Source: an uncultured Ignavibacteriaceae bacterium
GTDB taxonomy: Bacteria > Bacteroidota > Ignavibacteria > Ignavibacteriales > Ignavibacteriaceae
Direction: 5' to 3'
NCBI GenBank assembly: GCA_964596145.1
Contig: CAZQSR010000001.1
Coordinates: 2,023-66,022, forward strand
DNA: 64,000 nucleotides
Shown: positions 63,132 through 63,563 of the stretch, in pieces
Numbering within the stretch: position 1 is the stretch's first letter
How the letters are laid out: each line of letters begins with the position of its first letter
The notes under the pieces: generated by a model
What the model was told of the DNA's origin: nothing
What the model saw: only the letters and a program-made list of their open reading frames with translations
The model's database searches: none
Position numbers and translations under genes: made by a program

Positions 63132-63563
63132 GGGCTTGTATGGTTTTGACCCGGAAGAGTGGTGTAATAAAACACGTAGAGAACGATACTCTTAAAAATA
63201 GAAAAACAATAACTGACAAGAAAGTAATTTCTTTCGCTCGTCCAGCAGCTGTACAGCTAGCTGCATAATTGAGCCAAGTTAGTAACGACTTAGGAACAGA
63301 AAAGTTACAAAAAAGAAGATTTATCATTCATTAAATGCGTAGACGCAAGGTGCCGAGATGATAAACTCCTATGCTAGGCGATAGGCAAATAATGTTTTCC
63401 TAATTTTCTCAAAATTAGGTGGTGGAGCGACTGTTAAACTAACAGTCCCAAGTTTTATCATTTTTCTTTATAAAATGGCAGAAAAACTACTGTAAATTGT
63501 AAACGTGTGTATTTTATTAAGGATCCTTTCGTGGATACGAGGGTTCGAATCCCTCCAGGTCCA
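63132..63563 (+). ncRNA. ssrA: tmRNA (SsrA), phage-encoded
   Basis: The 5' GGGCTTG pairs with the 3' CAGGTCC, including a G3-U70 pair. GGTTTTGAC resembles the conserved 5' GGAUUCGAC. The 3' part is TTTCGTGGATAC followed by the T arm GAGGG-TTCGAAT-CCCTC and discriminator A. An internal tag frame ends ...FARPAAVQLAA-TAA (63224-63268), downstream of an AAAAATAG box. Confidence 0.8.

Follow-up and report, generated by a model that had tools for sequence, protein, structure and literature searches.

The 64,000-nucleotide stretch of DNA analysed here (the window) contains a genuine, full-length, one-piece tmRNA gene at positions 63132-63564, and this gene lies inside a phage genome. Judging from its sequence, the tmRNA is probably functional, and we consider it likely that the phage encodes it to enlarge the pool of free ribosomes during infection. 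The late genes of the same phage use TGA as a sense codon, and we put forward, as a plausible hypothesis, a link between the tmRNA and this recoding.

The tmRNA gene and its phage surroundings

An Rfam search matched RF00023 to positions 63132-63566 of the forward strand with 66.5 bits (E = 1e-23; gathering score, 47 bits), and the match extends over the whole model (1-374). The first-pass annotation, which was made from the letters, had called the element a tmRNA and proposed an Infernal search, and this match bears it out. The gene has a GC content of 37% and folds with a minimum free energy of -110.7 kcal/mol, whereas shuffled sequences give -92.5 +/- 5.3 (z = -3.4). The gene and its tRNA-like domain consist of the following:

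63132-63564, forward strand: one-piece tmRNA gene, 433 nt to the base after the discriminator (RF00023; ARAGORN at a relaxed threshold gives the same ends)
63132-63138, forward strand: 5' strand of the acceptor stem, GGGCUUG, with G3 of the G3:U70 alanine identity pair; 7 of 7 pairs are formed with 63556-63562
63139-63149, forward strand: reduced D-loop region (UAUGGUUUUGA), aligned with high posterior probability to the RF00023 consensus GGaUUCGAC; the D region of ARAGORN
63539-63555, forward strand: T arm GAGGG-UUCGAAU-CCCUC (Rfam alignment; covariation in relatives)
63556-63563, forward strand: 3' strand of the acceptor stem, CAGGUCC, with the discriminator A at 63563 (Rfam alignment, ARAGORN, relatives)

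The tRNA-like domain is complete: it has a 7-bp acceptor stem, G3:U70, a GUUCGAAUC-type T loop and the discriminator A, with no anticodon arm. CCA is absent from the gene, the genome letters at that place being A-C-T-T. Both acceptor strands with their G3-U70 pair and the T arm are found as first read, and the 5' box claimed earlier is present as GGTTTTGAC at 63142-63150 by direct reading of the sequence. We also agree that the minus-strand open reading frame at 63091-63327 is a mere shadow of the RNA gene, and a protein-coding reading of it is rejected.

By its sequence, the tRNA-like domain is of the Bacteroidales type. Its last 29 nt are 100% identical to those of the tmRNAs of a Bacteroidales MAG (L018), a Ca. 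Symbiothrix (L079) and a Petrimonas (L120), and its 28-nt core recurs without any difference in the tmRNAs of two Dysgonamonadaceae (L088, L105) and a Bacteroidaceae MAG (L102). Among the matches listed, all bacterial tmRNAs with this acceptor stem are from Bacteroidales and carry tags of the GENNYALAA type, which fits the Bacteroidota host named in the annotation. The one-piece tmRNA of Bacteroidales thus has its GGGCUUG/CAGGUCC acceptor stem, its T arm and its last 29 nt in common with the window. In contrast, the window gene is carried by a phage, has a hairpin at the position of pseudoknot 1 (PK1) and, within the PK3-PK4 region, carries additional hairpins as well as an insertion; its body is almost unalignable with Bacteroidales tmRNAs and far diverged from all host tmRNAs found (nhmmer E about 1e-4).

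The identity of the last 29 nt to Bacteroidales ssrA also suits a different reading, in which the element is a passenger or remnant: a host ssrA gene acquired by imprecise excision, or an attP site, which would be non-functional or serve as a recombination target only. ssrA is a classic phage integration site, phage genomes often bear its 3' fragments (PMC9004378), and the window copy goes uncalled by default ARAGORN. We nevertheless regard this reading as very improbable, as the gene is full length and no mere 3' fragment, its diverged body keeps its helices by compensatory changes, the tmRNA is syntenic in relatives, and the neighbouring genes tested include no integrase. An attP site or an ssrA 3' fragment was rejected on the full length of the gene and the lack of an integrase among these neighbours.

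The window has capsid and tail PHROG matches, with portal and terminase open reading frames recognised by eye, and the relatives of its phage are contigs of ~150-210 kb. Phage genes flank the tmRNA on both sides, and GC is uniform at ~29-30% over the last 10 kb of the window. In a 149-kb phage contig (L277), a tmRNA scoring 83.7 bits is located at the same position, and the flanking proteins are 78-95% identical. The capsid and tail genes and this synteny sustain the earlier statement that the tmRNA is phage-encoded; a host gene at a prophage border is rejected, given the phage genes on both sides, the uniform composition and the same locus in L277. Three features lie directly upstream:

62091-62867, forward strand: SPFH/Band_7 (HflC-like) gene, the conserved upstream neighbour (PF01145 in all homologues)
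62875-62907, forward strand: intrinsic-terminator-like hairpin (13-bp stem, then a T run) at the boundary between Band_7 and the small open reading frame with the tmRNA
62920-63123, forward strand: 67-codon open reading frame ending 8 nt before the tmRNA, 93% conserved in L277, with no Pfam match

The tmRNA is found 0.3-2.5 kb downstream of Band_7 in L277 and also in L279-281 and L284, whose Band_7-linked tmRNAs are more distant, and this adjacency recurs amid otherwise unrelated flanks. Band_7 homologues at <=64% identity have no tmRNA nearby. IMG/VR searches with NAMPT and with Band_7 gave nothing syntenic, and an exact look-up of the window Band_7 protein returned no record. Matches to TTTG-N17-23-TAnnTTTG, the promoter consensus of Bacteroidota, show no enrichment in the window, and sigma-70-like sites near the tmRNA occur at chance level only. 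A tblastn search of the 64-kb window with an approximate E. coli SmpB sequence as query gave no match; function would thus depend on host SmpB accepting the phage RNA.

RNA body, tag and tmRNA relatives

Between the two halves of the tRNA-like domain, the following elements were assigned:

63150-63177, forward strand: helix 2, 5' strand, pairing with 63503-63533 (ARAGORN bracket for H2a)
63178-63192, forward strand: 4-bp hairpin AGAG/CUCU at the PK1 position, aligned to the first PK1 stem of RF00023
63193-63214, forward strand: A-rich single strand with the resume context (...AAAAAUAG...AACAAUAACU), aligned to Bacteroidales tmRNAs
63215-63268, forward strand: tag frame GAC...GCA (DKKVISFARPAAVQLAA) with the TAA stop at 63266-63268 (frame from the Rfam alignment; homologous tags in relatives)
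63276-63308, forward strand: pseudoknot 2 (PK2), stem 1 AAGUU/GACUU and stem 2 GUAAC/GUUAC, with compensatory changes in both stems
63309-63393, forward strand: variable region (PK3 area), of which ~42 nt are absent from L277 (L277 alignment; low Rfam posterior probability)
63399-63427, forward strand: 9-bp hairpin CCUAAUUUU-CUC-AAAAUUAGG, then the UGGUGGAG motif; the most conserved internal block
63429-63447 and 63459-63477, forward strand: two further hairpins, kept in L277 by inspection and present in the minimum free energy fold
63503-63533, forward strand: helix 2, 3' strand (ARAGORN; covariation in relatives)

The long helix 2 is present, with H2a as drawn by ARAGORN and with H2c and H2d paired; H2d is CACGU/ACGUG here and CAAGC/GCUUG in the megaphage relatives, 2 of the 5 positions being compensatory. 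Bacteroidales tmRNAs have a second PK1 stem; inspection of the window and the megaphage relatives revealed none. In E. coli, tmRNA tolerates the replacement of PK1 by a hairpin. In the megaphage relatives, PK2 stem 1 is GAGAG/CUCUU and stem 2 is CUAGG/CCUAG, shifted by one base, and the change from GUAAC/GUUAC to GUGAC/GUCAC in stem 2 of L277 is again compensatory. The pseudoknot architecture that the annotation had asked for is thus present at PK2, with compensatory changes; at PK1, a simple hairpin takes its place.

Further downstream, the PK3-PK4 region holds conserved hairpins and a GGUGGUGGAG motif, is rearranged relative to L277 and has no clearly assignable pseudoknots. The hairpins within 63429-63477 differ from those of L277 by an A-U to G-U change and an A-U/G-C exchange, and the distal hairpin CAUUUU/AAAAUG is CUGUUUU/AAAACAG in L277, a compensatory difference. 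Considering the 42-nt insertion in the PK3 area and the rearrangement, the window tmRNA may have undergone some partial decay.

Across 11 related phage tmRNAs, G3:U70 is invariant, acceptor pair 7 changes from G-C to A-U, and pair 5 is U-G, C-G or U-A. Compensatory changes occur at 4 of 5 positions of the T arm, 2 of 5 of helix 2d and 2 of 5 of PK2 stem 1, and in the 9-bp hairpin, which is paired in all 11 aligned tmRNAs and whose fourth pair is A-U, U-A or C-G. Since the tmRNAs at the same locus in relatives differ by compensatory base changes, the structure is under selection. The window and L277 tmRNAs are 87% identical.

The UGGUGGAG motif served as a pattern for retrieving relatives. The closest tmRNAs by sequence are in ~400-kb megaphage contigs of IMG/VR (L193, L214, L268-L275). 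These and the tmRNAs of a 180-kb clade (L001-L007, L130-L143; 530-596 nt in that clade) share with the window the acceptor type, the hairpin replacing PK1, the PK2 architecture, an invariant GUUUUCCU..UUUUCUCAAAAU.AGGUGG block and homologous tag frames. They differ from it in their phage backbones, with zero flanking proteins in common, in their tags (GENVDSPAYAMAIAA and GNTEVRMAA) and in their location within large arrays of ordinary tRNAs.

Several searches were negative. Exact-pattern scans of IMG/VR and JGI metagenomes with the back-translated tag peptide, wobble positions left free, gave 0 matches. When GenBank phages (50,697 records) were searched by blastn, neither the tmRNA nor 24 kb of the window had a match. 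In one contig (L203), the 3' pattern matches and a tRNA(UCA) is present, but there is no tmRNA.

The tag DKKVISFARPAAVQLAA has 17 residues, no start codon and a hydrophobic-Ala-Ala end, and its resume codon is GAC at 63215-63217, as set by the Rfam alignment and the homologous tags; a resume codon was one of the points that the annotation had wished to see checked. The annotation had read an internal frame ending FARPAAVQLAA-TAA; this end and the stop at 63266-63268 are indeed there, and the full tag is the 17-residue peptide. Likewise, the box that it placed before the frame exists as AAAAATAG, though 13 nt 5' of the resume codon, whose immediate context is AACAATAACT, a feature shared with Bacteroidales tmRNAs. 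The stretch 63193-63214 aligns with AACAAUUAACU, which lies upstream of the GGC resume codon in those tmRNAs; their resume context AACAAU(U)AACU is the same as that of the window, and both tags end in LAA. The suggested comparison with host tags reveals a difference: the Bacteroidales tag has 9 residues from Gly (GENNYALAA), whereas the window tag has 17 from Asp (GAC). For L277, default ARAGORN calls the same frame, with the tag DKKVISFARPVAVMAAA.

This difference in tags invites the proposal that the phage manipulates tagging: a distinct tag may route proteins to another protease or adaptor, possibly the adjacent SPFH/HflC-like protein with FtsH, and its purpose may be to take over the host or to recycle amino acids. 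A KVIxF (KVI[S/N/L]F) core, unlike anything in Bacteroidales tags, is common to the tags of the window, L277, L279 and L284, the adjacency of Band_7 and tmRNA recurs as described, and for phage Melnitz it has been proposed that tagging is selective (PMC9004378). However, every tag keeps a canonical hydrophobic-A-A terminus (LAA, AAA, LVA, IAA, VAA or MAA among the relatives compared), from which ordinary proteolysis would be expected; 3 of the 17 tag residues differ between the close relatives window and L277, which argues against a tight adaptor interface. The Band_7 homologues without a nearby tmRNA also speak against it, as does the lack of an identified adaptor or protease gene among the neighbouring genes tested. 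We therefore consider the proposal improbable. The related claim of the annotation, that a phage tmRNA could alter host trans-translation, finds no specific support here, the family tags having canonical degron-like A-A termini.

TGA recoding of the late genes

The annotation had stated that the genome suppresses UGA, and the following features agree with this:

1-36300, reverse strand: late (structural) block, in which TGA is a sense codon (coding density, in-frame TGA, capsid/tail PHROG matches)
36261-36334, reverse strand: suppressor tRNA with anticodon UCA at the head of the late block (RF00005, 56.5 bits; labelled 'SeC' by ARAGORN)
36800-64000, forward strand: early block in the standard code, including the tmRNA (density unaffected by recoding)

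Taking TGA as sense raises the coding density of the late block from 71% to 92%. In-frame TGA and TGG number 70 and 72 in late genes, and 0 and 111 in early genes; with TGA counted, the Trp-codon frequency is 1.3% in late genes and 1.5% in early genes, and TGG and TGA interchange between the late genes of the window and those of relatives. The tRNA(UCA) is an ordinary cloverleaf of 74 nt with a G73 discriminator; of the phage tRNA genes compared, those for Trp also have G73, in contrast to the other isoacceptors. Its overall similarity to other tRNAs is uninformative; G73 alone points to Trp. TGA in the late genes is thus most likely read as Trp. In all 31 capsid-family loci, the count of TGA is at least that of TAA and that of TAG; the excess is clear in most of them and wholly absent from two short loci.

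This organisation, with an early standard code, TGA-rich late structural genes and a phage tRNA(UCA), is like that of described recoded phages (Borges et al., preprint 10.1101/2021.08.26.457843; Yutin et al. 2021, PMC7886860). The window differs in carrying a tmRNA, a term for which a full-text search gives 0 occurrences in those two papers, and a tmRNA is not known to have been put forward as an element of the recoding toolkit. In the literature found, no paper connects phage tmRNAs with stop-codon recoding.

It is possible that the tmRNA is kept specifically as an adaptation to UGA suppression, clearing ribosomes that have read through stop codons and destroying the extended proteins. Sense TGA is confined to late genes, with the tRNA(UCA) heading the late block, while 9 of the 47 early genes terminate in TGA; the tmRNA is in the early arm and could therefore be present before the code switch. 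A passage of PMC3985003, citing Ueda et al. 2002, reports that read-through by suppressor tRNAs creates SsrA substrates, which lends published support to the idea of rescue after UGA read-through. With these two elements, the TGA-ended early genes and the SsrA substrates, the premise of a recoding link is sound. In addition, two of the megaphage loci among the most similar tmRNAs have a tRNA(CUA) within a few kb of the tmRNA, and MT835470, a distant relative with the standard code and the only such one examined in full, lacks tRNAs, a tmRNA and any excess of TGA.

Other evidence points the opposite way. The co-occurrence is anecdotal, and genome size confounds it, as large phages gather tRNAs, tmRNAs and suppressors together. 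tmRNAs are reported in 2.3% of phage genomes (402 of 18,146; PMC9004378), and no report of recoding was seen for those phages. The TGA-recoded capsid family has long contigs in IMG/VR (up to 172-213 kb), and three tmRNA-derived patterns (5' end, 3' end, internal block) match none of them; this absence is weak evidence, because a copy as diverged as the L279 type may escape an exact pattern. No recoding signal is given by the loci surrounding the other phage tmRNAs (180-kb clade, megaphages), a test that is uninformative because these stretches are tRNA arrays or early regions. Finally, in a genome of 31% GC, the next in-frame TAA or TAG usually follows soon after a read-through, so that true non-stop events on phage messages would be few. 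On balance, we lean against specific adaptation to UGA suppression, while giving it more weight than the passenger and tag-manipulation readings. It refines the reading of a phage tmRNA that enlarges the ribosome pool and does not exclude it. Many standard-code phages also carry tmRNAs.

Proposed function and place among phage tmRNAs

For the reading that we favour, a functional tmRNA that enlarges the free-ribosome pool, we propose the following course. The transcript would be processed at its ends and receive CCA from host enzymes, and host AlaRS would charge it with alanine through G3:U70. Host SmpB and EF-Tu would then bring it to stalled ribosomes with an empty A site. Translation would resume at GAC (63215), appending Ala and DKKVISFARPAAVQLAA until the UAA stop; the ribosome would be freed and the truncated product marked by its C-terminal LAA for ClpXP-type proteolysis. 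The benefit to the phage would be more free ribosomes, the tmRNA belonging to the same translation-support toolkit as the tRNA arrays of its relatives. Extra stalled ribosomes may arise once tRNA(UCA) is made, by UGA read-through on host and early phage messages. A working tmRNA would mean that recoded phages carry their own translation quality control in addition to the means of changing the code. One would also predict that switching on a UGA suppressor in a standard-code cell causes read-through and non-stop ribosomes, with which the phage must cope.

tmRNAs have been described in phages before, and finding one in a large phage is by itself unsurprising. Mycobacteriophages of the Bxz1 type encode them. 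They are also encoded by huge phages (Al-Shayeb et al. 2020, PMC7162821), Melnitz and pelagimyophages (PMC9004378). As in the described cases, the window has a complete ssrA in a lytic-looking large phage with a proteolysis-type tag; described genes are often beside tRNA genes. The window lineage differs from them in being one-piece, of Bacteroidales type and in AT-rich phages, with no blastn match among GenBank phages.

The annotation had also suggested ARAGORN as a check, with a divided outcome: the default settings do not call the window tmRNA, and the relaxed threshold recovers its ends, though with a wrong tag. Default ARAGORN also missed all ~20 tmRNAs of the 180-kb clade and several others. 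As ARAGORN is the tool behind published phage tmRNA censuses and the usual one for phage annotation, published counts are probably too low, and tests of tmRNAs against recoding should use covariance models.

A broader and rather unlikely possibility is that a Bacteroidales-type phage tmRNA lineage moves between unrelated large AT-rich phages and forms a third component of the recoding toolkit, beside the suppressor tRNA and release-factor control, clearing ribosomes that read through host stops after the onset of suppression. If this were true, the association between tmRNAs and recoding would have gone unnoticed because ARAGORN-based annotation misses many such genes. The traits of this proposed mobile lineage are the hairpin replacing PK1, the conserved GUUUUCCU...AGGUGG block and long non-host tags.

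Identity and anatomy of the tmRNA gene

The first-pass annotation called a tmRNA from the sequence alone, and the Rfam search of the window agrees: RF00023 matches over its full length at 63132-63566 (+), with 66.5 bits (E = 1e-23) at a gathering score of 47, and the sole other structured RNA returned is a tRNA at 36261-36334 (-). The acceptor strands, 5' box, T arm and short frame that it had named were all read in the sequence, and are listed here together with the elements added by alignment and comparison.

Elements of the tmRNA gene (RNA position 1 is window 63132; L277 is the closest syntenic relative)
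63132-63138 and 63556-63562, +, acceptor strands GGGCTTG and CAGGTCC with G3:U70
63142-63150, +, 5' box GGTTTTGAC
63150-63177 paired with 63503-63533, +, helix 2
63178-63192, +, only a 4-bp hairpin at the PK1 position
63215-63217, +, resume codon GAC (Rfam alignment)
63266-63268, +, stop of the tag DKKVISFARPAAVQLAA (frame from the Rfam alignment), ending ...FARPAAVQLAA-TAA
63276-63308, +, PK2, two 5-bp stems
63309-63393, +, variable stretch, about 42 nt of which are missing in L277
63399-63419, +, 9-bp hairpin, with a UGGUGGAG motif and two more hairpins downstream
63539-63555, +, T arm GAGGG-TTCGAAT-CCCTC
63563, +, discriminator A, with CCA unencoded at the 3' end

The tag frame is supported by three agreeing lines: the context upstream of the resume codon, AACAAUAACU, matches AACAAUUAACU before the GGC resume codon of Bacteroidales tmRNAs; default ARAGORN reads the L277 tag as DKKVISFARPVAVMAAA, resuming at GAC; and the tags of megaphage relatives, such as GENVDSPAYAMAIAA and AENVDSPAYEYAIAA, can be aligned to it. 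The ARAGORN check proposed in the annotation succeeded only in part, giving no call at default settings and, at a relaxed threshold, the same two ends with an implausible tag. The fold of the RNA beats 100 of 100 shuffles (z = -3.4). A score above threshold, the tRNA-like domain, helix 2, the tag frame and PK2 were all found; at PK1 and in the PK3-PK4 region hairpins were seen, to which no clear pseudoknot could be assigned. The gene belongs to the tmRNA family and is a real, probably functional phage tmRNA.

Phage tmRNAs are an already known kind. What is new here is modest: a Bacteroidales-type phage tmRNA lineage with no blastn match in GenBank phages, a 17-residue tag beginning with Asp, a hairpin at the PK1 position, the housing of the gene in a TGA-recoded phage, and the escape of this and many related genes from default ARAGORN. 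The program misses the window gene (63132-63564), all 20 or so tmRNAs of a clade of 180-kb phage contigs (L001-L007, L130-L143) and several others, L224, L271 and L279-L281 among them, the missed others scoring 49-82 bits with Rfam; thus, surveys of phage tmRNAs that rely on ARAGORN or Pharokka probably underestimate their number.

Conservation of the RNA and its locus

Base pairs were counted helix by helix in 11 phage tmRNAs, a small and related set, with helices defined from the window sequence. In the T arm, 4 of 5 positions carry compensatory changes; the acceptor stem keeps 7 pairs throughout, with G3:U70 invariant and pair 7 changing from G-C to A-U. Helix 2d reads CACGU/ACGUG or CAAGC/GCUUG, PK2 stem 1 AAGUU/GACUU or GAGAG/CUCUU, and PK2 stem 2 GUAAC/GUUAC or CUAGG/CCUAG, its register off by one base; one position of the 9-bp hairpin is A-U, U-A or C-G. 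The window and L277 RNAs are 87% identical, and between them an A-U pair of PK2 stem 2 is replaced by G-C and a distal hairpin changes from CAUUUU/AAAAUG to CUGUUUU/AAAACAG. Such a number of changes on both strands of homologous helices would be difficult to explain if the gene were a decaying pseudogene. The two tags differ at 3 of 17 residues (...PAAVQLAA versus ...PVAVMAAA), and these differences coincide with alterations in the hairpin overlapping the last part of the tag frame.

In the early arm, an SPFH/Band_7 gene precedes the tmRNA by 265 nt, and the interval contains a terminator-like hairpin and an ORF of 67 codons. Locus stability was tested on contigs encoding homologues of this Band_7 protein.

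Band_7 genes and neighbouring tmRNAs (identities are to the window protein)
Window 62091-62867, +, SPFH/Band_7 (HflC-like, PF01145)
L277:10001-10774 (149-kb Logan contig, SRR23447892), 95% (94% by tblastn), 10 kb colinear; tmRNA in the same place, 83.7 bits
L279-L281:10001-10765, 70%; tmRNA 335 nt directly after Band_7, within a 24-tRNA array; tag by eye GKVINFSSRQELALVA
L284:6579-7355, 78%; tmRNA 2.4 kb downstream; tag GETKVILFTAAIAEVDEAPCFSMKAAA
L278, 78%; contig stops 1.3 kb past Band_7
L282, L283 and L286, 60-64%; no tmRNA within 10 kb

All tags from the window, L277, L279-L281 and L284 have a common N-terminal core, KVI[S/N/L]F, and terminate in LAA, AAA or LVA. Band_7 stands 0.3-2.5 kb 5' of the tmRNA both here and in three other contig groups, and in two of those groups the remaining neighbours are unrelated. 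Because HflK/C-type proteins regulate FtsH, the Band_7 protein and the tmRNA might conceivably form a functional pair. Just 5' of both lies a NADAR - NUDIX - nicotinamide phosphoribosyltransferase cluster (56824-61695, +; L277:6368-9598), genes of NAD salvage and ADP-ribose handling. Contigs with Band_7 homologues also carry a Hatchet ribozyme (L286:6183-6313) and a group I intron beside a LAGLIDADG gene (L283:8566-8792).

In a genome scan, bacterial tmRNAs starting GGGCTTG...GGTTTTGAC were all Bacteroidales among the matches listed (Dysgonamonadaceae, Petrimonas, Ca. Symbiothrix, Bacteroides and Bacteroidaceae); these are 394-437 nt long and have GENNYALAA-type tags, as the annotation had expected of Bacteroidota hosts (...NYALAA). 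The final 29 nt of the window tmRNA are identical to three of these listed matches, whereas its body is barely alignable to them (nhmmer E about 1e-4) and its tag has 17 residues, Asp first. The nearest RNAs by sequence are on IMG/VR contigs of 241-412 kb, retrieved with the internal block TTCCTNNTTTTCTCAAAATNAGGTGG; a third group of about 20 contigs (100-190 kb) has the 5' end in common, with tmRNAs of 530-596 nt and the tag GNTEVRMAA. No flanking proteins are common to the window and these other tmRNA-bearing phages. The simplest reading is that a tmRNA of Bacteroidales origin has been passed among large phages infecting these hosts and has diversified there, while host AlaRS, SmpB, EF-Tu and RNase P would keep the tRNA-like domain constant.

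TGA recoding and the role of the tmRNA

The window is phage DNA, with tail proteins and the following genes.

4376-5806, major capsid protein
24647-26872 and 27059-29206, ORFs that by eye look like portal and terminase

TGA suppression, claimed earlier for this genome, holds up. In-frame TGA breaks up the minus-strand late block (1-36300), where taking TGA as sense raises coding density from 71% to 92%; 36300-64000 (+) is unchanged. In-frame TGA versus TGG counts are 70 versus 72 in late genes and 0 versus 111 in early genes, and TGA counted as Trp restores the Trp-codon frequency (1.3% late, 1.5% early). Window TGG codons are often TGA in relatives. G73 is an identity element for TrpRS, and the tRNA(UCA), the putative suppressor, has G as its discriminator, as in the compared phage tRNA-Trp genes. 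On these codon and tRNA comparisons, TGA in late genes is therefore most likely read as Trp. In IMG/VR, 31 relatives of the capsid protein were identified (64-81% identity, contigs up to 172-213 kb, 27-32% GC), at whose loci stop codons flanked by long same-frame ORFs were counted: TGA is at least as frequent as TAA and TAG in 31/31, with a clear excess in most and zero such stops of any kind at two short loci. This capsid family is one of TGA-recoded large phages. A tail-fibre-like gene (13907-18256, -; 1,449 codons, 39-43% GC) has zero in-frame TGA and looks as if it had been acquired recently from a source that uses the standard code; its late neighbours have about 30% GC and up to 20 TGA each.

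Is the tmRNA tied specifically to UGA suppression? The idea is attractive and testable, and we consider it possible but rather doubtful. Nine of 47 early genes stop at TGA and would therefore be read through once the suppressor is active, so that suppression should extend their products as well as host proteins, and it is documented that read-through by suppressor tRNAs gives rise to SsrA substrates (Ueda et al. 2002, as cited in PMC3985003). In addition, a tRNA(CUA) is present at two of the megaphage loci with the nearest tmRNAs, and a distant relative that uses the standard code lacks both tRNAs and a tmRNA. However, genome size confounds the observed association; 2.3% of sequenced phages, marine and huge ones included, are reported to carry a tmRNA (PMC9004378), with no recoding report found for them, and the long IMG/VR contigs in this recoded capsid family gave zero matches to three tmRNA-derived patterns. 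Regions around other phage tmRNAs, uninformative for such a test, gave no recoding signal. The 'Jug' phages (360-402 kb, Bacteroides or Phocaeicola), to which the megaphage contigs may or may not belong, are reported with the standard code (PMC12880540). The literature found holds nothing joining phage tmRNAs to stop-codon recoding. Separately, three consecutive early genes (59455-60292, +) stop at TGA with overlapping stop and start codons.

The sequence and its comparisons show tmRNA architecture over the full length, conservation of the locus and helices that evolve by compensatory change. By analogy with the SsrA pathway, host enzymes would add CCA, G3:U70 would direct alanylation, and host SmpB and EF-Tu would deliver the RNA, no SmpB gene having been found in the 64-kb window; translation would resume at GAC and release at UAA, and the LAA at its C terminus would send the product to degradation. 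For the phage, the benefit that can best be defended is general ribosome rescue in infection.

Side features of other phage contigs

An 81-nt sequence in a 26-tRNA array (L217:1748-1828, -) scores 57 bits on RF00023, as if a tRNA-like domain alone, and a 148-kb phage contig (L203, IMG/VR 3300036861_000610) that matched the tmRNA 3'-end pattern carries a tRNA(UCA) in a 17-tRNA array (2525-2611), with no RF00023 match in the 4 kb fetched. In the 180-kb clade, tRNA-like genes of 92-95 nt lie near the tmRNA.

tRNA-like genes of the 180-kb clade
L138:10277-10371, L147:7111-7205, L002:13181-13273, +
L133:8203-8296, L005:1796-1889, L130:2875-2966, L136:1312-1403, -

The anticodons that ARAGORN assigns do not agree from gene to gene ('ttag', 'aga', 'cgc' and, in L002, 'at', of two bases). 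The loop of the first hairpin is variable; that of the second is an invariant 7-nt UUCUAGG and would make a canonical anticodon loop carrying CUA. The genes may encode an unusual amber suppressor that has one arm more. The same clade has RAGATH-34 RNAs (RF03103, 72-80 bits) at a distance of about 1.5-2 kb from its tmRNA.

RAGATH-34 RNAs
L002:9604-9704
L004:1423-1520, -
L005:5352-5453, -
L006:4815-4912
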